From Gemmatimonadota bacterium (GTDB taxonomy: Bacteria; Gemmatimonadota; Gemmatimonadetes; Longimicrobiales; Gaopeijiaceae): 64,000 nucleotides of DNA. The translations under genes and the position numbers were made by a program. Where the stretch lies: positions 32,001-96,000 of the forward strand of contig JAXHMG010000003.1 of NCBI GenBank assembly GCA_034521595.1. The letters run 5' to 3'. This document shows, in pieces, positions 1 to 34,234 of this stretch. Positions within the stretch are counted from its first letter, which is position 1. Every line of letters starts with the position of its first letter. The notes beneath the pieces are model-generated. The model searched no databases and was not told the DNA's origin. It worked only from the letters and a program-made list of their open reading frames with translations.

Positions 1-88
1 TCACCCCGCCACACCCGTTCCGGGCCATGTAGGCCGGAGCGCCCGCAGGGCGCGGAGCCGGCAACATACTTTGTTAGCGGATGTTGGC
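1..88 (-). repeat. attC-like recombination site no. 2 (partial, truncated by left window edge)
   Basis: 1-33 matches 619-651 at 32/33 nt. It then carries the GGA-stem-GCA-stem-GGA hairpin (36-56), CCGGCAACAT and the GTTAGCGG core (73-80), in the same order as the complete site at 536-695. Confidence 0.8.
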
Positions 89-234
89 GTCCTGTGGTCC
101 ACGAAACACTTACGGTCGACGTCACGAGGAACGTCGCGTCGACGGCTATCCGTTCCGGTGGTTCGACCCCAAACGGAAACCCCGCGGACACACGGTCGAG
201 GGATCGCGCGAAGGGAGCCCAGGGAGCGAGCAGA

Positions 235-467
235 CCGAAGGTGTAACCCCAGCCGACCGAAGATGCCTCGGAGCGGGTGAACGCGCGATTCACCAAAACC
301 TCTTTGGCGCCGTCGACGAAGAACCTGCCGGGTGGACATCGCAGCCGTGGATCGAGCCCGCCCGACTGTGTGGAGCCACACGGGGGGAGGGACAGCGGCG
401 AATCCATAGGGTGGTGGGCGTGACTCGGGCCGAAGGTGCGAACCCAACTGACCGTAGATGCCTCGGA
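235..467. repeat. Internal 38-bp direct repeat pair in cassette 2 (235-272 and 430-467)
   Basis: CCGAAGGTGTAACCCCAGCCGACCGAAGATGCCTCGGA vs CCGAAGGTGCGAACCCAACTGACCGTAGATGCCTCGGA, 32/38 identical, 195 bp apart. Confidence 0.85.
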
Positions 468-535
468 CGAAGTCACTGCACGAGAACCTGAACGCGTCGC
501 CGCTGTCCTCGAACCTGACCATCCATGGCCAATGT

Positions 536-695
536 CCGCTAACGTTCAGATGTTTCCGACGTGGCCCACCACCGCTCCCTCCGGAGCCGGCCGCCCGTCA
601 TGAATACGGCTTAGGCGCTCACCCCGCCACACCCGATCCGGGCCATGTAGGGGAGCGAGCGCAGCGAGCGGACCCGGAAACATTCTTGTTATGGG
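536..695 (-). repeat. attC-like recombination site no. 1 (complete, 150 bp from AAC to GTT)
   Basis: CCGCTAAC (536-543) ... GTTATGGG (688-695). Inner arms ATGTTTCCG (550-558)/CGGAAACAT (675-683) and ACGTGGCCC (559-567)/GGGCCATGT (640-648). Side hairpin at 655-669. Confidence 0.85.
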
Positions 696-2027
696 ACGTG
701 TGTTGTCGCTCGGCGAGTCACCATGCTCCCCGCTCCACAAGAGCATGACCACGATTCCCTTACGGCTTGGTTAGTTCCAACATGACCACCGCCGGCACGT
801 CGAGCTCATTGAGGCGAACAGCCAAGATGTGCGTATCCGTGATGTCGAGCAGAGCGTGACGTACCCTGGCAGTTCGACCCATCCTTGTAGCGTCCCGTCA
901 CGAGTAATGACACGCCATCTGTCCGGGGGTTGGATGGGAAGGCCGTACTGGCCCAGCCACACGTTACCGACCCTATCTACATGGAAACCGTCCCAGTAGG
1001 GCAAAGGCCCGTCATGTCGATCCAGGCCTTCCTCCAGTCTTGCGATCTCAGCGTTGATGAAGGCCTCTTCGGCACCGCGGGCGGCGTAGGCCTCGCGGTA
1101 GGCTTGCGCCATATCCTGCTCCCAATCCGGAGTCAACGGAAACGGCTGCTCCTCCCAATGCGCGACCTGCAGCAGACGCCCCGAACTGTCGTACCAAGTG
1201 ACTTCCGGACGATCCGAACGTGCCCAGGCAAACCCGTCGGCAAACCCTCCCGCGCGACCCTTGACCGAAATGGGTCCAGGCCCTGCTCCGCGGGTCCCGT
1301 ACCACCGTCTGAGATGAGGCAACTCGGCCAAGGTATCCGTTTCGGCCTCGACGAGATCAGTAATGAGGATCGGCTGCATCTCGAAAACCCATTCGGGCCG
1401 CATTTCAGATACCCCGCTGTAGCCGTCTCCGGGTACGAGAAGAACACGCCCGTCAGCAAATGCAGATGAGGCGTAGTGGAGGAAGCTGCCCGGAAGGGGC
1501 TCAGTGGCCACTACTTCTCCCTCCCTCGAGAGGACCGTGATTCGCCGGAGCCTCCCGTCCGTCACAATGACTGAGTCGCCTTGCAAGATCAGCGCATCAA
1601 GGCCCTGATACTCCCCGGGACCTTCTCCCTTGCGGCCCCATACCTCCAGCACTGTCCCGTCGGGGGCGAGCCGATAGATCTTCCCTTCGCCGTACTCACC
1701 GATGAGTGCCCCACCATCCGGCATGATCTGGCCTGACTGCACCCAGGTGAACGTCGGATCACCAGCCGCCCAACCGAGTGAGAAAAGAGGCTCCGAATTG
1801 GCGGTCCACTCCGCCGAGCCCGGCGTACCATTCTGCACAATGCGGATACCCGACGAATCGGTCACCACGGCCTCGGCGCGGCCAGCGGTTTGTGCCTCTG
1901 GTCCACATGCCGACCCTAGGAGACTGAGAACCAGTGCTCCCGCTAGCTTCGGACTCTTCAATGGGGAAGCCTCCAGCTCAGTGATAGGTCAAACCCGGGA
2001 TCCGACCCAACAACACATGTCCCATAA
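543..2027 (-). mobile_element. Integron-like cassette 1 (single gene plus attC-like site)
   Basis: Starts at G|TTATGGG on the minus strand (2028/2027). Ends 2011-2028 and 688-705 are reverse complements at 17/18 nt. One ORF with RBS; visibly more A/T-rich codon usage than the flanking chromosome. Confidence 0.8.
760..1961 (-). CDS. 6-bladed beta-propeller-like lipoprotein (cassette gene); apparent frameshift near 851-854 affects the last ~30 codons
   Basis: TTG start with GGAGG RBS (1970-1974), lipobox LGSAC, propeller-like motifs (WGRKGEGPGEY, FHVDRVGNVWL). The called ORF ends at 771, but a shifted frame gives a more plausible end LLDITDTHILAVRLNELDVPAVVMLELTKP* at 760. Confidence 0.75.
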
Positions 2028-2040
2028 CTGTTTATTTCCG
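2011..2040 (-). other. attI-like primary insertion site (half site: L-like box plus G|TT core)
   Basis: Minus strand reads CGGAAATAAACA-GTTATGGG. It has the same T(G/A)TTTCCG box next to the AAC/GTT core as the attC sites, but no full partner arm. Lies between the recombinase stop and the first cassette. Confidence 0.6.
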
Positions 2041-2258
2041 AATCAACGTGTCGGGTTGCCCCGTTGGGGGCGTGGGGTTTCCGACGTTGATGGTCCCGTG
2101 GATAACAGGCTGCTCGATCCACGCGGTCCGGCCTCTGCGGCCTGCCTCGGTCGCGCCCGCCACTCGGCCCGCTCGGCATCTCGACCCGGCCGACTGTGTC
2201 CAACGTTCGCTACCTCGTCCGCGAGCGCAAGCGACAGCCGGCGCTGATCTCACGGCTC

Positions 2259-3443
2259 TCATTCCAGGTTGTCGAGCGGACTTCTGAGGGTTTCGAGCGT
2301 CGACTGGGCGACATGGGTGTAGACCTGGGTGGTTCGGGCGCTTTTGTGGCCGAGGAGCTCCTGGATGACCCGGAGGTTGGTGCCGCCCTCGAGGAGGTGG
2401 GTGGCAAAGCTGTGACGGAGGGTGTGGGCCGTCACTCGCTTTTGGAGTCCGGCGGCCTCGGCTGCCTGCTGGACGATGCGTTGGACGGACCGGGTCGTCA
2501 GGTGGCTTTCGGGCGTGCTGCCGGGGAAGAGCCACGGTCCGGTGGGGTAGGCGTCACGGTAGATTTGTACGGCCTCGACTGCGCGCCGTGCCAGCAGGGT
2601 GTACCGGTCCTTGCCGCCCTTGCCGCGGCGTACCCGTAACAGGCCGCGTTCCACGTCGAGGTCTTCGGGGGTGAGGCGGACGAGCTCGCTCACCCGCAGG
2701 CCGGCGCTGTAGAGCAGCATGAGCAGGGCTCGGTGCTTGGAGTTGCGAGGCTTCTGCAGGATGCGGGCGACCTCGTCCGGGGCGAGCACGGTGGGGAGGG
2801 GCCGGTCCTTCCTGGGTCTGGGGATCCGGAGGGCGACTCTGGGCCGACCGAGCACGGATTCGCAGAGGAACCGGAGCGCGCTCACGACCTGATTCTGGTA
2901 GCTCTTCGAGATCCCTTGGCCGCGGACCAGGGAAAGTAGGTACGTCTGAGCCTCTTTCCCCGGGTCGGACGGGAGGCTGGGGACGCCTCCACCGCACCAC
3001 TCCAGGAATCTGCGGATCTGTCCCAGATAAACCTTGCGGGTCTTGGGGCTGTACCCCCGGAGGTCGAGGGCTCTACGGACCCGCTCGAGGATCTCGTCCG
3101 GCGCTTCGGTGGTGGGTGGTCGCGTCGGCTCGTGTCGTCGAACGTCACGCTTTTCGTCGGGATCGGGACGGTCGAGGGAGTCGGTGCCTCCGGGCGGTTC
3201 CGGGGATGGGGCGGTGCGGTCGTCGATGACCCAGACCTGCTTCGGGCCGACCGCGCGTTGGAGCGCGGCGATGGCCGCGTCCGCGTGCGGCGCGCTCCAG
3301 ATGCCGCGGTCCGGTCGGAATTCCCGGCCGGGTAGCGCGCGGACGGCGGCGAGTGCGGGAGCGAAGTGTGAACGCCCCAACTTGATGAGAACGCGGTCTT
3401 CCCCGGGGACGACGCGAACGGTGACGGCGGGATCCGTGGCCAT
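2259..3443 (-). CDS. Tyrosine recombinase/integrase with SAM-like domain and extra HARP-like N-terminal domain; lacks the IntI insertion
   Basis: Catalytic motifs intact: GLRVSE, GKGGKDR, HTLRHSFATH, LGH, TTQVYTH. C-terminal RSPLD. SAM-like region RGYSPKTRKVY. Only 23 aa between KDR and WLFP. ATG at 3443 chosen (ORF extends to GTG 3458). Confidence 0.92.
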   Translation of the reverse strand: MATDPAVTVRVVPGEDRVLIKLGRSHFAPALAAVRALPGREFRPDRGIWSAPHADAAIAALQRAVGPKQVWVIDDRTAPSPEPPGGTDSLDRPDPDEKRDVRRHEPTRPPTTEAPDEILERVRRALDLRGYSPKTRKVYLGQIRRFLEWCGGGVPSLPSDPGKEAQTYLLSLVRGQGISKSYQNQVVSALRFLCESVLGRPRVALRIPRPRKDRPLPTVLAPDEVARILQKPRNSKHRALLMLLYSAGLRVSELVRLTPEDLDVERGLLRVRRGKGGKDRYTLLARRAVEAVQIYRDAYPTGPWLFPGSTPESHLTTRSVQRIVQQAAEAAGLQKRVTAHTLRHSFATHLLEGGTNLRVIQELLGHKSARTTQVYTHVAQSTLETLRSPLDNLE

Positions 3444-3500
3444 GCCCAAGGAAACCACGGGGTCCGGGGCGGTGGCATGGGGCGATCGGACCGTCGGTGG

Positions 3501-5042
3501 CTACCCGGTGCGCTCGATCTCTGGCCGTCCGGCGTCCAGGCGCCAGCTCGACGCGGTCGTGACAGGGGCTCCCGGGCGGGTGACGTAGTTGACGGTGCGG
3601 TAGTCGGCCGTCCAGGCATCCCCGGTCACGCTGCAGCGCACGTAGCCGCGGCGGCTGTTCTGCCAACGGACGTGGGGGTTGTCGCTCATCGCCTCCCGCA
3701 CGGAGTCGAACATGTCCGCTCCGTCTCCGTTCGAGCTGATCGAGGTGCCGACGAGCTCGGCTCCGATGACGGGGCGGTCGGGGCGGTCGTAGCCGGCGTG
3801 GAGATCGTTGACCCAGTTCGAGTGGCTGTCGCCGGTGAGCACGACGGTCCGGCCCGGCGCTGCGTCGGCGAGGGTCTGGAGCAGTCGGTCCCGGGCCACG
3901 GGGTATCCACTCCACTGATCCATGGATGTGACCACGTCCGAACCGGGGTCACGGTCGAAGGGCGCCATCATGATCTGTTGCGCGAGGACTTGCCAGGTGA
4001 CGCCGTCGCGGCCGAGCTGGCGGGTGAGCCACCGTTCCTGCGCGGTCCCGAGCATGGTCCGCCCCGCGTCGTTCCAGTCGCCGCACGGCACCTCGCGCCT
4101 GCCGTCGCCGCATGCCTGGTCGCTTCGGTACTGGCGCGTGTCGAGCGTGTGGAACGCCGCGGTGCGGCCCCATCGGAAGGAGCGCCAAATGGTGAGGTCG
4201 GCCCAGGAGCCCGGCCGAGGGATGCGCACCGGCTGGTGCTCCCACCAGGCCTGATAGGCGGCGGCCCGGCGGGCGCGCATGCGTTCGACGTCTTCGGGGT
4301 CGTGCTCCCCGACGAGATCGGCGTAGTTGTTGTCGACCTCGTGGTCGTCCCAGGTGACGATCCAGGGGCAGAGGGCGTGCGCGGCTTGCAGCGCGGGATC
4401 CTCCTTGTACTGCGCGTAACGGCGTCGGTAATCCTCGAGGGTGACGATCTCCGGGCCGTGGTGCGCGCGCACCTGGTTCTCCCCGGTCCCGTATTCGTAG
4501 ATGTAGTCGCCGAGATGCGCGACGAGATCGAGGTCCTCGCGGGCCAGGTGCTCGTAGGCGGTGAAGAGCCCCTGCTCGAAGTGCTGGCACGACGCGAACG
4601 CGAGATCGAGCCGGGCGTCCGTGCCGGTGCGGGGCGCGGTGCGGAGGCGTCCGACGGGGCTGTTGCCGTCCGCGAGATGGAAGCGGTAGAAGTACCATCG
4701 GTCGGGCTCGAGACCGTCCACATCGACGTGCACGGAGTATCCGAGCTCGGGCACGGCCGTATGCCGACCTTGCCGAACGACCCGAGCGAAGCCCTCGTCG
4801 CGGGCGACCTCCCAGTCGATGACGGTTCGCGTCCCATCCATGCCGCCGTGCTCCTCGAACGGAGCGGGCGCGAGTCGGGTCCAGATCACGCATCGGTCCG
4901 GGAGGGGGTCGCCGGAACCGACACCGAGTGTGAACGGATCTCCGTCGAGGCGCGGCCGCGACGTCACGCGCCACATGCCGGGCACACCCGCGCAAAGGAC
5001 GGCGTAGCGCGTGAGATCGGCCAGGAAGTTGCGGCGGTCCAT
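3501..5042 (-). CDS. phoD: Alkaline phosphatase D family protein (Tat-exported)
   Basis: DRRNFL Tat motif, FTLGVGSGDP, HLGDYIYE, WDDHEVDNNY, LDTRQYRS, DQWSGY, LTGDSH. Confidence 0.9.
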   Translation of the reverse strand: MDRRNFLADLTRYAVLCAGVPGMWRVTSRPRLDGDPFTLGVGSGDPLPDRCVIWTRLAPAPFEEHGGMDGTRTVIDWEVARDEGFARVVRQGRHTAVPELGYSVHVDVDGLEPDRWYFYRFHLADGNSPVGRLRTAPRTGTDARLDLAFASCQHFEQGLFTAYEHLAREDLDLVAHLGDYIYEYGTGENQVRAHHGPEIVTLEDYRRRYAQYKEDPALQAAHALCPWIVTWDDHEVDNNYADLVGEHDPEDVERMRARRAAAYQAWWEHQPVRIPRPGSWADLTIWRSFRWGRTAAFHTLDTRQYRSDQACGDGRREVPCGDWNDAGRTMLGTAQERWLTRQLGRDGVTWQVLAQQIMMAPFDRDPGSDVVTSMDQWSGYPVARDRLLQTLADAAPGRTVVLTGDSHSNWVNDLHAGYDRPDRPVIGAELVGTSISSNGDGADMFDSVREAMSDNPHVRWQNSRRGYVRCSVTGDAWTADYRTVNYVTRPGAPVTTASSWRLDAGRPEIERTG

Positions 5043-13553: not shown

Positions 13554-16439
13554 ATGGACCACCCGATCCGGATCCGCGGCGCGCGGCAGCACAACCTCAA
13601 GAACATCGACGTCGACCTCCCGAGACGGGCGCTCACCGTCGTGACCGGCCCTTCGGGGTCGGGGAAGAGCACGCTCGCGCTCGACACCCTCTTCGCCGAG
13701 GGTCAGCGACGCTACGTGGAGTCGCTCTCGACGTACGCGAAGCAGTTCCTCGAGCGAATGGAGAAGCCGCACGTCGATTCGATCGAGGGGATCAGCCCGG
13801 CTGTCGCCATCGAGCAGAAGAACCCGACCAAGACGAGCCGTTCCACGGTCGGCACCGCGACGGAGGTATACGACTACCTGCGCCTCCTGTGGTCACGGGT
13901 CGGGCGGACGTACTGCCCGGTCTGCGGCCGCCGGGTGCGTCCCGACACGGTGAGCTCGGCCATCGATCGGGTGCTGGAGCTCGAGCCGGGGACGCGCGTC
14001 CAGGTGGCTTTTCCGCTGGCGCACGGGGCGGCGCTGACCCATCAGGCCGTGGTCGAAAACCTGCGGGCCATGGGATTCGTGCGGGTCCTGGCCGACGGGG
14101 AGCTCGAGGACCTGGGCGGGAGCGAGGCCATCACGCCGGAAGGGCTCGGACGCGACTTGACCGCGGCCGGCGAGCTCCTGGTCATCGTGGACCGGCTCAA
14201 GGTCGACCCGGAGGATCGCGAGCGGCTCGCCGACTCGCTCGCGACGTGTTTCGTGGAGGGGGAGGGCGAGGCGCTCGTGCTGATCTCTCCGCGCGAGGGC
14301 CCGCAAGAGCGACTCCTCTTCACCGAGCGATTCCGCTGTCCCGATCACCCGGACATCACCTTCCTGCAGCCCACGCCGCAGCTCTTCTCGTTCAACAACC
14401 CGTACGGCACCTGTCCCACGTGCACGGGCTTCGGGGCCACGCTGGAGTACGATCCGGAGCTGATCGTGCCCGATCCCGAGCGCTCACTCGCGGAGGGTGC
14501 GGTCGACCCATGGTCGAAGCCCCGTTACAAGAAGGAGCGCGCCCGGCTCGATCAGTTCGCCCGCGACCAGGGTGTTTCCACGGAGGAGCCGTGGCGGGAG
14601 CTGCCCGAGCCGTTCCGCGACGCGGTGCTGCACGGCACCAAGGGCTTCAAGGGAGTGATTCCCTTCCTCGTATCCCGCGAGCGCAAGAAATACAAGCAGT
14701 ACATCCGGGTCTTCCTGCGCCAGTACCAGACGCCACGCCCCTGCGCGGAGTGCGGCGGCGGGCGGATCCGGAAGGAAGCCCGCTACGTGCGCATCGGCGG
14801 GCGGGACATCGCGGAGGTCTCGGCCATGCCGCTCGAGGAGCTGGCGGTTTGGGTGGGGGAGTTGGCCGGTGGTGCGCCCTCCGACGACCGGACGCAGGCC
14901 GGAGCCTCCACTCCGGTTCTGACCCGGATGGAAGCGCAGATCGCCGAGTCGATCCTCCGGGAGCTCCGGGCGCGGACCGGATTCCTGGTCGATGTCGGGT
15001 TGGGGTACCTGACCCTCGACCGGCAGACCCGTACCCTCTCGGGGGGTGAGGCGCAGCGGATCAACCTCGCCAACTCCCTGGGCTCGGCGCTGGTGGACAC
15101 GCTCTACGTGCTCGACGAACCCACGGTGGGACTGCACCCCCGTGACACCGGCAAGCTGTTGGACCTCCTCGGTCGGCTCAGCGCGGCCGGCAACACCGTC
15201 GTGGTGGTGGAGCACGACCCCGAGGCGATCCGCGCCGCCGACCACGTGGTCGAGCTCGGTCCGGCGTCGGGTGAGCGGGGCGGCGAGCTGGTGTACGCGG
15301 GGCCGCCGGATGCGCTCGGCGAGCGGGATACCGCGACGGGGCGCTACCTCTCGGGTCGGTCGGGAGTCGCGCTTCCCGAGCGCACCCGCGACGTGCGGGG
15401 CAAGAGCCTCGCGCTTCGGGGGGGGCGGCTGCACAACGTGAAGGACGCGGACATCGAGATTCCGCTCGGCACGCTGACCGTCGTCACCGGGGTGTCGGGT
15501 TCGGGAAAGTCCACGTTGATCCACGACGTCCTCTACCATGCGCTCGAGCGTGCGCTGGGCGGAGAGAGCTCCGCGAAGGAATACCTGGGCGAGGCGGTGG
15601 GAGCCTGCGACGGGCTCGACGGCGTCAGCGCGCTCGACGAGGTGGTGCTCGTCGACCAGTCGCCCATCGGCCGGACGCCGCGCTCCAACCCGGTCACCTA
15701 CGTGAAGGCCTGGGACCACGTCCGCAAGATCTTCGCGGACCAGCCGGTCGCGCGGGAACGGGGCTACACGCCCGGACACTTCAGCTTCAACACCGCCGGG
15801 GGGCGGTGCGAGGAGTGCAAGGGCGCGGGACACGTCGAGATCGAGATGATCTTCATGGCGGACGTCTACGTGCCGTGCGACGCCTGCGGCGGTCGGCGCT
15901 ACGGTCGTGAGATCCTGGACGTGAAGGTGCGCGGCAAGAACGTCTCGGAGGTGCTCGACCTGACGGTCGACGAGGCGATCCGCTTCTTCATCCGGGAGCG
16001 AAAGCTCGGTAAGGCGCTCTGGCACTTGCAGCAGGTGGGGCTCGGCTACCTCCGGCTCGGCCAGCCGGCGCCGACGCTGTCGGGGGGAGAGGCGCAGCGT
16101 CTCAAGATCGCCCGCGAGCTCTCGGGCGCCGCCGGCCGGAAGGGACGGAAGCTCTACATCCTGGATGAGCCGACCACCGGACTCGCCGGCGAGGACGTGA
16201 GCAAGCTCGTCGACGTCCTCGAGCGGCTCGTGGACGCGGGCAACACCGTGCTGGTCATCGAACACGACATGGACGTGGCCAAGGTCGCGGACTGGATCAT
16301 CGACATGGGCCCGGGAGCCGGGCACCGGGGCGGGGAGGTGGTCGCGATGGGGCCGCCCGAGACCGTGGCCGGCGTGCCCGGGAGCGCGACCGCGCCGTAC
16401 CTTCGCGCGGCCCTCGACCGGGCTGTGGAAAAGGTCTGA
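13554..16439 (+). CDS. uvrA: Excinuclease ABC subunit A
   Basis: [39 protein letters not shown], two LSGGEAQR motifs, second Walker A GVSGSGKS. Confidence 0.96.
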
Positions 16440-16727
16440 AACGCCTTGTGGCATAGGCTTTTTCGCACGTCGGGCGGGGTTGCCGCTCGCGTAGCGTGAG
16501 GGTTATTTTCCACCGTCTTTGAAACCCTCTCCGCCCCGCCTCCGCGAACGCGTCCCGACCCGTTCGCGGCCGTCTCGATCCGTGAGCGTTCACCAGCCGA
16601 CTCCGGTGGGCCGTGCGGATCGCCTCGGAACCGGCCGTGAGAGGCGATCGTTCCGTAGCTTCGCATGCCCGACCGCGACCGCCTTCGAACGGCGTCGCGC
16701 GCGACTCTTGACCAGGAAGAACCCGGT

Positions 16728-19364
<2,637 letters not shown>

Positions 19365-30568: not shown

Positions 30569-31434
30569 GTATCGGTGTTCCGGTGTTCGTTCACGTTTCC
30601 GGGGCCGCCCGAGGGGCCGACTTCCTCTTTGAGGTCGGCCAAGGTCACGGTCCGGCGCTCGCCTTCCGGACCGCGCAGGCTCACGGTGTCGCCCCAGATG
30701 TCCACGGCGACCACCTTTTCTTCTCCGAGGGAGGTGCGGATCTTCCGCCCTTCGCGCGGGAAGCGCCGCCGTGCCTCCACGTACGTCTTGTGCTCGTACA
30801 TCAGGCAACACATCAGCCGTCCGCAGCACCCGCTGATCTGCGCGGGGTTCAGCGAGAGGTTCTGGTCCTTCGCCAGCTGGAGCGAGACGGGCTTGAGCTC
30901 GGGTAGCCAGGTCGAGCAACAGAGCTCGCGGCCGCAGCGACCGACGCCTCCGAGCAGCGCGGCTTCGTCCCGCACCCCGATCTGCTTGAGCTCGATGCGC
31001 GTCCGGAAGGTGCGCGCCAGGTCACGCACGAGCTGCCGGAAGTCGACTCGCTTTTCGGCGGTGAAGTAAATGATCAGCTTGTTGCGGTCGAACTGCCACT
31101 CGGCTTCGGTCACCTTCATGTGCAGCCCGTGCTTCTGGACGAGCGTACGGGTTTCTTTCCGCACGCGATCCTCGTCCTCCCGAAGCTCGTCGAGGCGGGC
31201 GATCTCCTCGTCCCCGGCGAGCCGTACGATCCGATTTTCCGGCGTGGGCGTGGAACACCCTCCGGACGAGGAGCACTTCCGCTCGGCGACGACGCCGATC
31301 GCCGAAACGACCCCGAGGTCTTCCCCCCGGTCCGCTTCGACGATGACGTGGTTCCCGGCTCGTACATCGGTGTCGGAGTACGTGTAGTACTCCTTGCGGG
31401 ATCCCTTGAACCGGACTTCGGCGAAGCCTGCCAT
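30565..31434 (-). CDS. ricT: PSP1/RicT (YaaT) family Fe-S regulatory protein
   Basis: RVDFRQLV, RIELKQIGVRDEA, GRCGRELCC, ISGCCGRLMCCLMYE. Confidence 0.9.
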   Translation of the reverse strand: MAGFAEVRFKGSRKEYYTYSDTDVRAGNHVIVEADRGEDLGVVSAIGVVAERKCSSSGGCSTPTPENRIVRLAGDEEIARLDELREDEDRVRKETRTLVQKHGLHMKVTEAEWQFDRNKLIIYFTAEKRVDFRQLVRDLARTFRTRIELKQIGVRDEAALLGGVGRCGRELCCSTWLPELKPVSLQLAKDQNLSLNPAQISGCCGRLMCCLMYEHKTYVEARRRFPREGRKIRTSLGEEKVVAVDIWGDTVSLRGPEGERRTVTLADLKEEVGPSGGPGNVNEHRNTDT

Positions 31435-31443
31435 CGCGTACGC

Positions 31444-32403
31444 TCAGGCCTCGCGCCAGGCGCCGATGCCTTCGTATTTCGCCCACCGGCGCTCGCGAAG
31501 CTCGTCCACGGGAAGCTCTTCCAGCTCGGTGATGACCCGCTGCAAGGCGTCGCTCAACCGCCGCGAAGCTCCGTCCCAGTCCGTGTGGGCACCGCCTTCC
31601 GGCTCGGGAACGATCTCGTCGCAGACCCCGAGCCTGTGCAGATCTTCCGCCGTGAGCTTGAGGGCGGTCGCCGCCTTTTCTTTGTGCTCCGCCGAGCGCC
31701 ATAGGATGGCCGCGCACCCTTCGGGTGAGATGACCGAGTAGATGGAGTGCTCGAGCATCAGAATTCGGTCGGTCACGCCGATGCCGAGCGCCCCTCCCGA
31801 CATCCCTTCGCCGATGACGGCGGAGACGACGGGGACCCGCAGCCTGGCCATCTCACGAAGGTTGAAGGCGATCGCTTCTCCGATCCCGCGCTTCTCGGAT
31901 CCGATGCCCGGATAGGCTCCGGGCGTGTCGATGAAGGTGATCACCGGCCGGCCGAACTTCTCGGCCTGGTGCATGAGCCTCAGCGCCTTCCGGTATCCTT
32001 CGGGGTGCGGCATCCCGAAGTTGCGCCGGAGGTTCTCCTTCATGTCGCGGCCCTTCTGTTGGCCCACGACCATGACCGAATGTCCGTTGAGGCGAGCCCA
32101 TCCGCCGACGATCGCTTCGTCGTCCCGGTAGCCTCTGTCCCCGTGGAGCTCGATCCAGTCGGTGAAGAGCCGGTGGATGTAGTCCAGGGTATAGGGCCGT
32201 TGCGGATGGCGGGCGACTTGCACCTGCTCGATCGGCTTCAGGCTCTCGTAGGTCTCGCGCTTCAGGTCGAGGAGCTTGCCACGGAGCACGCCGACCTCGT
32301 CCGAGACGTCGATGCCCTTACGGTCCGCGAGATCGAGCAGCTTGTCGATCTGCGTCTGGATCTCGACGATGTCGCGCTCGAAGTCTAGATGCACGTTCGT
32401 CAT
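31444..32403 (-). CDS. accA: Acetyl-CoA carboxylase carboxyltransferase alpha subunit
   Basis: LDFE, ARHPQRP, LHGDR, FGMPHPEGYRKA, DTPGAYPG, SVISPEGC. Confidence 0.97.
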   Translation of the reverse strand: MTNVHLDFERDIVEIQTQIDKLLDLADRKGIDVSDEVGVLRGKLLDLKRETYESLKPIEQVQVARHPQRPYTLDYIHRLFTDWIELHGDRGYRDDEAIVGGWARLNGHSVMVVGQQKGRDMKENLRRNFGMPHPEGYRKALRLMHQAEKFGRPVITFIDTPGAYPGIGSEKRGIGEAIAFNLREMARLRVPVVSAVIGEGMSGGALGIGVTDRILMLEHSIYSVISPEGCAAILWRSAEHKEKAATALKLTAEDLHRLGVCDEIVPEPEGGAHTDWDGASRRLSDALQRVITELEELPVDELRERRWAKYEGIGAWREA

Positions 32404-32530
32404 GGGAAGGAGAAGCGTCTGGGACCCTGAAACTCGCCGGAGGCCGGCCGGGTCCGCAACCGGCGACGGGCCCGGACGAGCTGTTCGCGAAGTCCCTCGC
32501 GGCGTGGAGCCGTGCGGCTCGCGGCAAGCC

Positions 32531-34234
32531 TCAGGGCCGCAGCTCCTTGAGCACCCATCCGTCGGGGTCGAGCCGTACCGAGCCGGTCGGCCGCGCGTCG
32601 AGCGTGAAGCGGAGCGTGTCCTGGCCCGAGGCTGAAACCGCCTCGCGGCAGATCCGTTCGACTCCCTCACCCCAGCAGAGCTCGAGGGGCACCCGGAACC
32701 GGGGCCAATCTTCGTTCTGGACCTGTTGCACGACGACCTCGGCGACGCCGCCGTTCGCTTCATCCGGAATCCAGCGCTCCTCGACTTCGAAGACCGGATA
32801 TCCGGGTCGGTGGAGCCACTGCGTGAAAAACCAGTCGAGCTCGCGGTGGGAGACCTCTTCCATGACGTCCTTCAGGTCGTCGGTCAACACGGCCGTGTGG
32901 ATGTTTCGCCGGTAGAACTCACGGATGGCCTCGAAGAAGACTTCGTCTCCGAGCAGGCCGCGGAGCATGTGCAGAACCCATGCGCCCTTGGGGTAGTTGT
33001 TCGCGTTGAGGAGCGCGAACAGGTCGGTCTCGTCGGGATCGATGACCGGTCGCTCCGCGGCCTCCGAGTTCACGACTCGGGTGCGGTTGTTCTCCATGAT
33101 TCCGCGGAACGCGTCCACGCCGTCGGCGGCCTCGAAAAACAGACCTCCGAAGTAGGTCGCGAACCCCTCCGAAAGCCAGAGGTGGTGCCAGCTCGCTTCC
33201 GTCACGGCGTCGCCGAACCACTGGTGCGCGATCTCGTGCGAGACGGTGCTCTCGATGTCGCGCCCGTCCGCGATCGCCTGCTCCGAATAGAAGATGGCCG
33301 AAGCGTTCTCCATCCCGCCGAAACGGGTCGCTGACTGGACGTTGGCGAGCTTCTCGAACGGGTAGTTCCCGACCAACTCGGTGAAGAAGTCGACCATCTG
33401 GGCCGCGCGCCGGAACGAGGGCTCGGCGTTCTCGACGTCCTCCGGAAACACCCAGTAAGTCACCTCGACGCAGCCGTCCTCCCGCCGGGACGCCGGAGCC
33501 CGGCCGCATGCCGCCAGGCCGATCGTGCGCACCTCGAGGTCCGCCGCGCCGATCACCATGTTGTACGTCGAGATGGGTACGCCCACCTCCCAAACCCAGG
33601 TGCGTCGCTCTCCGCTCTCCGGACCGAGCGCTCCGTCGCGCGTCGGCGTCGGCTCACCGACCAGGTGGCCGTTCGCGATGACCCGCCAGCCGGCCGGAGC
33701 GTGGACCGTATAACGCACGGTCGCCTTGTCGGCCGGATGGTCCACCGTGGGCATCCAGAAACGTGTCCGGTTGGGCCAGTTGTCCACGAAGGCCGCGGGA
33801 TCTCCGTGTACGTTGTCGCGCAGGATGAGCCCGTCGTCGGGGACGCCCCGATACGCGAGCGCTACCCGGACGGTGTCGGCCGGGCGTCTGCCGTCCAGGG
33901 GCACCCGGACGACCCCGTCCTCGTGGAGGTAGGGCACGGTCTGGCCGTCGACGGTCAGCTCGGTGATCTCGAGCCCGGTGAAGTCGATCGGAAGCACGGG
34001 TCCGTGCTCCCGCACGCTCACCCGGAGCTCGGTATGGCCCTCGAAGCCCTCCGCACCGGATGCAAGGCCGACTTCCACCTCGTAGTGGAGCACGTCCACT
34101 CCGGGTGCGTAGGGCCCCGGGGCCGGCGCGACGCCCGCCTCGATGGGCTCGGGCTCCTGCGCCCCCGCCGGAATCGGGCCGGTGCCCAGCGCGAGGACGG
34201 CGGCTGCGATCGATACGGCCCGTTTCCACGTCAT
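32531..34234 (-). CDS. M1 family aminopeptidase (secreted)
   Basis: Signal peptide; GGMEN, HEIAHQWFG...WLSEGFATY, YPKGAWVLHML. Confidence 0.92.
   Translation of the reverse strand: MTWKRAVSIAAAVLALGTGPIPAGAQEPEPIEAGVAPAPGPYAPGVDVLHYEVEVGLASGAEGFEGHTELRVSVREHGPVLPIDFTGLEITELTVDGQTVPYLHEDGVVRVPLDGRRPADTVRVALAYRGVPDDGLILRDNVHGDPAAFVDNWPNRTRFWMPTVDHPADKATVRYTVHAPAGWRVIANGHLVGEPTPTRDGALGPESGERRTWVWEVGVPISTYNMVIGAADLEVRTIGLAACGRAPASRREDGCVEVTYWVFPEDVENAEPSFRRAAQMVDFFTELVGNYPFEKLANVQSATRFGGMENASAIFYSEQAIADGRDIESTVSHEIAHQWFGDAVTEASWHHLWLSEGFATYFGGLFFEAADGVDAFRGIMENNRTRVVNSEAAERPVIDPDETDLFALLNANNYPKGAWVLHMLRGLLGDEVFFEAIREFYRRNIHTAVLTDDLKDVMEEVSHRELDWFFTQWLHRPGYPVFEVEERWIPDEANGGVAEVVVQQVQNEDWPRFRVPLELCWGEGVERICREAVSASGQDTLRFTLDARPTGSVRLDPDGWVLKELRP

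Follow-up and report, generated by a model that had tools for sequence, protein, structure and literature searches.

A HARP-family domain at the N-terminus of a tyrosine recombinase heading an attC-like cassette array in Gemmatimonadota

The stretch of DNA analysed here (the window) comprises 64,000 nucleotides (nt) of a Gemmatimonadota bacterium, positions 32,001 to 96,000 of contig JAXHMG010000003.1 in assembly GCA_034521595.1, and carries near its left edge, on the minus strand, the gene of a tyrosine recombinase and the beginning of a cassette array with attC-like sites. Integron integrases (IntI) are defined and searched for by one insertion, which reads the extrahelical bases of folded attC. 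The recombinase of the window belongs to a clade which heads attC-like arrays without this insertion and whose members nearly always have a domain related to modules that recognise branched DNA. In this study, we show that the first 76 residues of the recombinase form an independently folding domain, followed by a flexible, variable linker and the tyrosine recombinase proper, that this domain belongs to the HARP family, known as the module by which SMARCAL1-type SNF2 helicases and T4 UvsW recognise forks and junctions in DNA, and that one recombinase clade of Gemmatimonadota has kept the fusion throughout. Integrons have previously been reported in this phylum (PMC8618304). New here are the clade itself, its contrast with the many HARP-less canonical IntIs of the phylum, and a side element in its recombination sites.

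An open frame of 399 codons extends from a GTG (2259..3458, minus strand), with an ATG five codons later at 3443. The product of the gene caller (P0001) begins MATDP, which corresponds to that ATG and gives 394 amino acids (aa). In the following, residues of Pfam domains are counted from the GTG and those of the N-terminal domain from the ATG. The frame encodes a SAM-like core-binding domain and a catalytic domain, the PF00589 model being matched over positions 2-170 of its 172. The segments AGLRVSE, HTLRHSFATHLL, LLGH and VYTHV are readable in the translation, and we take them to hold the catalytic R, H-x-x-R, H and Y residues. Upstream of the SAM-like domain lies a region of about 120 residues free of Pfam families, consisting of a globular part of about 76 aa and a linker rich in Pro, Asp and Glu. 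A sequence-only reading of the locus had proposed an extra segment of about 70 aa in front of a Pro/acidic linker and the SAM-like domain, and this layout is confirmed by the open frame, the Pfam matches, conservation and the fold models. The peptide it quoted, RVLIKLGRSHFAPALAAVRALPGREFRPDRGIWSAP, is present at residues 17-52 from the ATG and its interval 3210-3443, which spans residues 1-78, is therefore correct. In the databases consulted, such recombinases are annotated as XerD or tyrosine recombinase only.

A word-index search retrieved a single relative, P0002, whose first ~80 residues are 59% identical to the window protein and are followed by a different, much longer His/Asp/Pro-rich linker of ~105 aa. 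Further homologues were obtained by exhaustive profile and genome searches, including full frames in 15 other genomes of the phylum, and short N-terminal fragments opening with the same domain were found as well (P0012-P0014, P0018-P0020, P0026 and P0037). The domain stands in frame at the N-terminus of P0002, P0012-P0014, P0018, P0020 and the frames of loci L006-L021, and its position in homologues is always the extreme N-terminus. The linker measures ~8 to 56 aa in 24 of the 28 parsed homologue rows (the other four were mis-parsed), and its sequence is not conserved. A true start downstream of the segment, named with the sequence-only reading as what would speak against it, is not the case, because the gene caller starts at MATDP and the homologues keep the domain in frame. 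In the genome of the window (G000) the domain occurs only once; two further matches stand at E 0.2-0.3.

The relationship to HARP became evident by profile searches. A search of 1.84 billion representative proteins with profile A1, built from the window domain and P0002 only, returned 41 at E<=1e-3. Compared with Pfam, 21 of these match the HARP family PF07443 at E<=0.01 and 12 reach its gathering score of 25 bits; five are SNF2 helicases (P0016, P0017, P0031, P0038, P0039) and eight have recombinase domains. Two of the SNF2 proteins were found at library-wide E-values of 9.4e-8 (P0017) and 8.1e-8 (P0016), and PF07443 itself scores 35.3 bits on P0017 and 40.3 bits on P0031. Profile A5, made of 13 recombinase-borne domains with P0030 and P0037, was searched against a collection of 5.8 billion clusters; P0030, which resembles a tandem-HARP fragment and is absent from A1, may have widened it. 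A5 retrieved 56 longer proteins, namely 16 recombinases annotated with PF13495 and PF00589 only, 28 SNF2 helicases (two with a precomputed PF07443; the source names several of them SMARCAL1-like), 11 small DUF6011 proteins and a single large subunit of ExoVII. Among its matches, P0049 carries PF07443 and SNF2 and was found at E 2e-19.

Direct comparison by hhalign agreed with the searches. The domains of 25 recombinases aligned with four SNF2-linked HARP windows, set around Pfam HARP coordinates, at a probability of 98.4% (E 5e-15), and with nine tandem-HARP repeats at 98.4%, the HARP identity of both comparison sets resting on Pfam. The controls stayed low, at 0.1% and 1.1% for reversed decoys and 0.2% for the SAM-like domain of the same recombinases. 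As both comparison sets came from the same hit list, hhalign is not independent of the A1 search. The motif shared by the two kinds of protein is visible by eye, for example in AAVRALPGREFRPDRGIWSAP of the window protein and AAVKSVPGRRFNPQTKCWTAP of the SNF2 protein P0017. Positions P38, R40, W49 and P52 are invariant in the domain and represent the basic/aromatic HARP motif common to helicase-linked HARP domains. The HARP-like resemblance noticed in the sequence-only reading is thus supported by sequence profiles, motif and predicted fold, with the window protein itself below the Pfam level. Relatives score 17-21 bits with PF07443 (P0013, P0014 and L014), under the 25-bit gathering score. Despite these sub-Pfam scores, the family link is strong at profile level. 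In PDB sequences, hmmsearch with A1 gave chance-level matches only (E>=0.44) and did not find SMARCAL1. The A1 profile found no loci in genome contigs; profile A4 found three there. One of the three, in Xanthomonas, was discarded as spurious, being a match of 25 residues in a frame antisense to a 673-aa gene.

Residues 1-80 were modelled with AlphaFold2. The predicted local distance difference test (pLDDT) was 88.5 with an alignment of two sequences and 87.5 with one of 15, and the secondary structure was identical, in the order strand-strand-helix-strand-strand-helix-strand (DSSP elements E7-11, E17-22, H27-35, E41-43, E48-52, H54-65 and E70-74 in both models). HARP is described in PMC4666394 as a five-stranded sheet packed on two helices, and the same paper places such a domain at the N-terminus of T4 UvsW. 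With five strands and two helices, the predicted models contain exactly the elements of this published fold. Solved structures were searched in a set of 48,161 chains by a tool independent of Foldseek, which warns that Z<8 may reflect a common arrangement only. Z>=5 was reached by only five of these chains, among them two of the XPB damage-recognition domain (5tnu at Z 5.3 and 2fz4 at Z 5.1) and two of the UvsW N-terminus (1rif and 2oca, both at Z 5.1 with 64 residues aligned, below the distinctive level of the tool). The SMARCAL1 HARP domain 4o66_A, also below that level, gave Z 3.3 and a root-mean-square deviation of 2.7 A over 49 of 67 residues. It was found by Foldseek at ranks 10 and 8 for the two models (E 0.19, template modelling score (TM) 0.44/0.48). 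The top Foldseek rows in the PDB were Prp protease, TM1457 and eIF1, small alpha/beta folds which we regard as unrelated.

Among predicted viral structures (BFVD), the top match was a phage 'HepA-related protein' (E 2.5e-3, TM 0.64), and a 73-aa protein named after SMARCAL1 stood at rank 10 (TM 0.65/0.67). The ESM Atlas yielded sub-threshold leads only, namely a cluster with 21% HARP members (0.80) and XPB_DRD (0.76). The proposed check by AlphaFold and structure search gave the five-strand, two-helix model and weak matches to XPB-DRD, UvsW and SMARCAL1 HARP; Foldseek had no PDB match at E<=0.001 with either model. The structural matches are individually weak and insufficient when taken by themselves, and they are consistent with what the sequences show.

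The recombinase core was compared with known systems. Among solved structures it is closest to VchIntIA, the integron integrase of Vibrio (2a3v_A, E 3.8e-45). The alignment breaks where chain residues 172-240 (68 residues) face core residues 167-193 (26 residues) of the query, so that the catalytic domain is without about 42 residues at the position of the IntI-specific insertion. The integron integrase model TIGR02249 scores 213.5 bits, under its cut-off of 265, and matches in two stretches, at model positions 1-173 and again near its end. Because of the break in the VchIntIA alignment and this split match below cut-off, the missing IntI insertion, which the sequence-only reading had assumed, can be regarded as real. 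The archaeal XerA model NF040815 aligns from residue 128 onwards and gives 210.1 bits against a cut-off of 220; relatives of the window protein score 203 to 241 bits with it, some members of the clade passing 220.

The recombinase gene heads a co-directional array. In L004, the stretch of contig G000:C3 which includes sequence to the left of the window, at least 13 copies of an element of ~150-165 nt are spread over 16 kb, spaced 565-5,055 nt apart, and between them lie small open reading frames (ORFs), mostly on the recombinase strand. Read on that strand, the site has the form TAAC-AA-L''(GTTTCCGG)...variable centre...L'(CCGGAAAC)-nnGAAC|GTTAT. This makes it an imperfect palindrome that follows the R''/L''-L'/R' logic of attC. 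A half-site lies next to the recombinase gene (Table 1), and a duplicated block of 100% identity (L004 5198-5413 = 17814-18028) ends exactly at its ATAAC/GTTAT core, a pattern expected from site-specific exchange there. On the other side of the recombinase, a gene of a PhoD-like phosphatase ends at 3501, 57 nt upstream of the ATG. Rfam gave nothing at E<=0.1 for window 1-3600.

Table 1. Features of the recombinase gene and the adjoining array, in window coordinates.
Feature	Position	Strand	Remarks
Whole recombinase gene	2259..3443	(-)	394 aa from ATG at 3443; in-frame GTG at 3458
HARP-family N-terminal domain	3216..3443	(-)	residues 1-76; motif LPGREFRPDRGIWSAP; two AlphaFold2 models, profile searches and hhalign
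Pro/Asp/Glu-rich linker	3084..3215	(-)	residues ~77-120 (~45 aa); no Pfam match
SAM-like core-binding domain PF13495	2826..3077	(-)	residues 123-206 (GTG numbering); Pfam E 3.2e-14
Tyrosine-recombinase catalytic domain PF00589	2289..2774	(-)	residues 224-385 (GTG numbering); Pfam E 7e-43
attI-like half-site	2010..2050	(-)	between recombinase stop and first cassette; resembles an L'-R' end; putative attI
First cassette ORF	771..1961	(-)	396 aa, no Pfam match; co-directional with recombinase; duplicated further along the array
attC-like site nearest recombinase	532..692	(-)	~160 nt; TAAC-L''...L'-AAC|GTTAT and conserved side element
End of next attC-like site	1..77	(-)	cut by the window edge; L004 15914-16077; array continues in G000:C3

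Within the array, whole cassettes are duplicated at 92-100% identity: L004 1-2833 corresponds to 15334-17817 (G000:C3:16001-18833 and 31334-33817), and the latter includes window 771-1961 with the 396-aa ORF. A direct repeat of 38 nt, 84% identical, occurs at window 235-272 and 430-467, 195 nt apart, in an ORF-poor cassette flanked by attC-like sites; the short cores of the repeat are found again at G000:C3:1518877/1519072, likewise spaced by 195 nt.

The folding of 27 parsed sites from five genomes was predicted as DNA by minimum free energy. In the predicted fold, the 5' arm alone carries a short side element after the L''/L' stem; on the 3' arm, a second stem continues directly from L'. The side element is a perfect hairpin (5-8 bp with a loop of 3-5 nt) in 15 of the sites, with at least seven different stem sequences, and a conserved 16-nt motif, GCTC(A/G)CTNCG(T/C)TCGCT, in nine; three have neither, and one of the hairpin sites also carries the motif. 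Either form is predicted to yield a bulged or three-way junction, where duplex gives way to non-duplex DNA, as in the substrates attributed to HARP domains.

Distribution was studied in a sample of 401 genomes of the phylum. The domain profile matches 16 of them (10/69 in family f1, 4/7 in f2, 1/166 in f4 and 0/94 in f5), and the recombinase core is found at E<=1e-55 in 25. Outside G000, 16 of the 19 core matches with at least 50% identity carry the domain; one is without it (G365) and two are broken (G159, G299). Eleven of the 16 were recognised by the domain profile and five (G270, G279, G086, G267b and G328) by a hidden Markov model of 25 sequences, with 19-34 domain bits. Only one of the 16 core matches with less than 50% identity, G167, has the domain; in seven others of this group that were tested it was not found, and their frames measure 286-339 aa.

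Co-occurrence with arrays could be tested at the seven loci with at least 15 kb on the 3' side of the gene. The same architecture was recognised, by self-similarity or by the AACGTTA core, in arrays on the 3' side of the gene in G000, G249, G301, G355 and G270, and G379 has five more diverged sites there; none of these six loci has an array on the 5' side. The co-occurrence check proposed with the sequence-only reading was thus positive at six of the seven loci. Ten draft assemblies have contigs that stop within the gene or at most 1 kb from its 3' end, which is expected of a repeat array and proves nothing.

Two of these genomes carry a separate canonical IntI in addition to the HARP-type, insertion-less recombinase with its array, namely G355 (G355:C1 1094831 and 1322412) and G301 (C3 and C10).

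Canonical IntIs have a very high prevalence in the phylum: TIGR02249 is exceeded in 165 of the 401 genomes, mostly in f4 (97/166) and f5 (61/94), a tally which includes three genomes flagged unpublished (G097, G182 and G157). In a quick maximum-likelihood tree of 48 cores, calculated without the insertion columns and without L075, 17 HARP-bearing, insertion-less proteins form one clade with a Shimodaira-Hasegawa-like approximate likelihood ratio test (SH-aLRT) value of 93, and 20 canonical IntIs together with L012, a HARP-bearing IntI discussed below, form another (SH-aLRT 100). In this tree, the two clades and the HARP-less Xer-like group do not resolve relative to one another, nor does it order the gains or losses of HARP domain and insertion. 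Domain and insertion are largely complementary in the phylum.

We propose that the domain would be a tethered, structure-specific DNA-binding module which helps the recombinase to find or orient folded recombination sites. In a folded site, the closing R/L stem would lead into the one-arm hairpin or the 16-nt motif and thereby present a bulged or three-way junction; the domain would read this junction, in a role analogous to that of the IntI insertion on attC. By analogy with its relatives, the domain most likely reads the side feature, or the folded site generally, and helps to choose site and strand, because the bulged or three-way junction offers the transitions which HARP domains bind; we put the chances of this at close to even. 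A wider form would make the HARP domain the part that reads structure in a second kind of integron, built independently. Its recombinase lineage would have lost the IntI insertion or never possessed it, and junction reading would set strand and site choice. We offer this wider form tentatively, as somewhat improbable when taken as a whole.

Several observations weigh against this interpretation. PF07443 does not match the window protein at E<=10, neither the whole protein nor residues 1-123, which taken alone match no Pfam family at E<=10, and among 14 genomic homologues it matches one, at 17.3 bits. All matches to solved structures are weak (Z<=5.3, Foldseek E>=0.03). The side element of the sites is heterogeneous, and the folds are only minimum-free-energy predictions. 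One genome, G239, has the fusion and no array within 20 kb by self-BLAST and motif scans, which are crude and blind to non-conserved attC. A six-frame scan of the 30 best-scoring canonical IntI loci (L075 from G097 included) found a HARP-like domain in none, the best value being 7.0 bits, with positive controls recovered at 13 of 13 loci (31.8-97.6 bits; three of them absent from the model); attC recombination as such does not need the domain. Moreover, locus L012 of G308 is a true IntI (TIGR02249 325.7 bits against 265, positions 2-314) and carries the domain as well (49 bits), and G288 (L008) and P0035 look like the same type but are truncated; near the HARP-bearing IntI of G308 the same crude scans, with the same blindness, found no array. 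Since L012 has both insertion and domain, the domain is not simply a replacement for the insertion. Finally, with HARP-bearing proteins and canonical IntIs in two separate clades, the complementary pattern is essentially one contrast, and the correlation may reflect descent. The suggestion that the domain supplies the role of the missing insertion has correlational support only (16/19 insertion-less close homologues against 0/30 canonical IntIs), and L012 speaks against a strict substitution. The idea of a substitute for the insertion is plausible and unproven.

Other functions of the domain can be envisaged. It could be an arm-type accessory domain which binds a specific duplex sequence, either the 16-nt element or a site in the attI region, bridges to the core site in the manner of the N-terminal arm-binding domain of lambda Int, and controls directionality instead of sensing DNA structure. 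In recombinases of the lambda Int type, a linker ties an additional DNA-binding domain at the N-terminus to the core-binding and catalytic domains, and the window protein, with its extra domain of DNA-binding type, long flexible linker, core-binding domain and catalytic domain, shares this layout while differing in fold and family of the N-terminal domain; arm-type sites were not identified here. Such a function would suit the nine of 27 sites with a conserved motif rather than a hairpin at the side position, but not the 15 with hairpins, whose differing stems at the same position argue for recognition of structure over sequence. Characterised HARP domains are, moreover, described as junction-specific and not sequence-specific (PMC4666394). 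We consider an arm-type function unlikely.

The domain could also target the recombinase to replication forks or to gapped DNA, at which single-stranded sites can fold, and so couple recombination to replication without touching the sites themselves. HARP acts in the fork-remodelling proteins SMARCAL1 and UvsW (PMC4666394), and the closest non-recombinase sequence relatives of the domain are SNF2 helicases. On the other hand, no link of the recombinase to replication was seen here, and the domain is kept specifically in the array-linked clade while the canonical IntIs of the phylum are without it, which makes fork targeting improbable. A module for protein-protein contact or regulation, serving multimerisation, autoinhibition or contact with a host factor without DNA binding, would be in line with the presence of the domain in non-helicase contexts, such as the three-repeat HARP proteins, DUF6011 proteins and a HATPase_c fusion; as the invariant P38, R40, W49 and P52 are the HARP motif of helicase-linked domains, we see little prospect for such a module. 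That there is no real domain, only a mis-called start or a chance similarity, might be suspected from the lack of a Pfam match on the window protein and of a strong Shine-Dalgarno motif before the ATG, but is already refuted by in-frame conservation in more than 25 homologues with variable linkers, next to the high pLDDT of both models and library-wide profile E-values that hold.

If the domain does read folded sites, there would be a second molecular route to single-strand, structure-specific recombination and a wider set of genomes using cassette capture. Searches by IntI signature would miss such integrons in Gemmatimonadota, and a small, portable module of 76 aa might become available for engineering structure-specific recombinases. 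In any case, the HARP domain, best known from fork-remodelling helicases, is now placed in a bacterial recombinase. A search of full-text literature, with subscription journals mostly outside it, found no paper pairing a HARP domain with a tyrosine recombinase or an integron; its matches to HARP, SMARCAL1 and integrase look unrelated by title and abstract.

Compared with SMARCAL1-type HARP domains (PF07443; 4O66) and UvsW, the domain shares the motif hydrophobic-x-x-V/I-K/R-x-L/I-P-G-R-x-F/W/Y-x-P...W..P, profile homology and predicted fold, UvsW, XPB-DRD and 4O66 being among its nearest structures. SMARCAL1-type proteins have a tandem HARP pair before the SNF2 ATPase, whereas here a single copy, below the Pfam threshold, stands at the N-terminus of a recombinase. 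With IntI (TIGR02249; 2A3V) the window recombinase has in common that its gene adjoins a cassette array with attC-like imperfect palindromes and an AAC|GTTA core. It differs in being without the insertion and below the TIGR02249 cut-off, in forming a separate clade and in having the extra HARP domain, and the sites of its array are long (~150-165 nt) and conserved in sequence within the genome. From archaeal XerA, under whose NF040815 cut-off the recombinase scores only just, it is distinguished by the HARP domain, which is not part of that model. XerA acts at dif and not at cassette arrays. Integrons of the Treponema type resemble the locus in that intI is transcribed towards attI, a layout described in PMC3607928; their integrases are reported as IntI, and no mention of an N-terminal extension was seen there.

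The domain was also met in other proteins. Proteins of ~240-340 aa consist of three HARP repeats with Pro-rich linkers and have no helicase or other domain (P0003-P0008, P0011, P0015, P0021, P0023, P0029, P0032 and P0040). Proteins of ~200-230 aa with DUF6011 (PF19474) and a HARP-like domain are found among P0066, P0069, P0073-P0081 and P0094. The domain profile further matches the ExoVII large subunit P0091 and a HATPase_c protein of 201 aa (P0009). P0036 (731 aa) is an insertion-less recombinase with three to four HARP-like repeats before the SAM-like domain. Among the HARP-less Xer-like recombinases, one of 297 aa is present in six copies on G224:C1 (e.g. 1221477-1222271), five of which score identically, suggesting a multi-copy mobile element.

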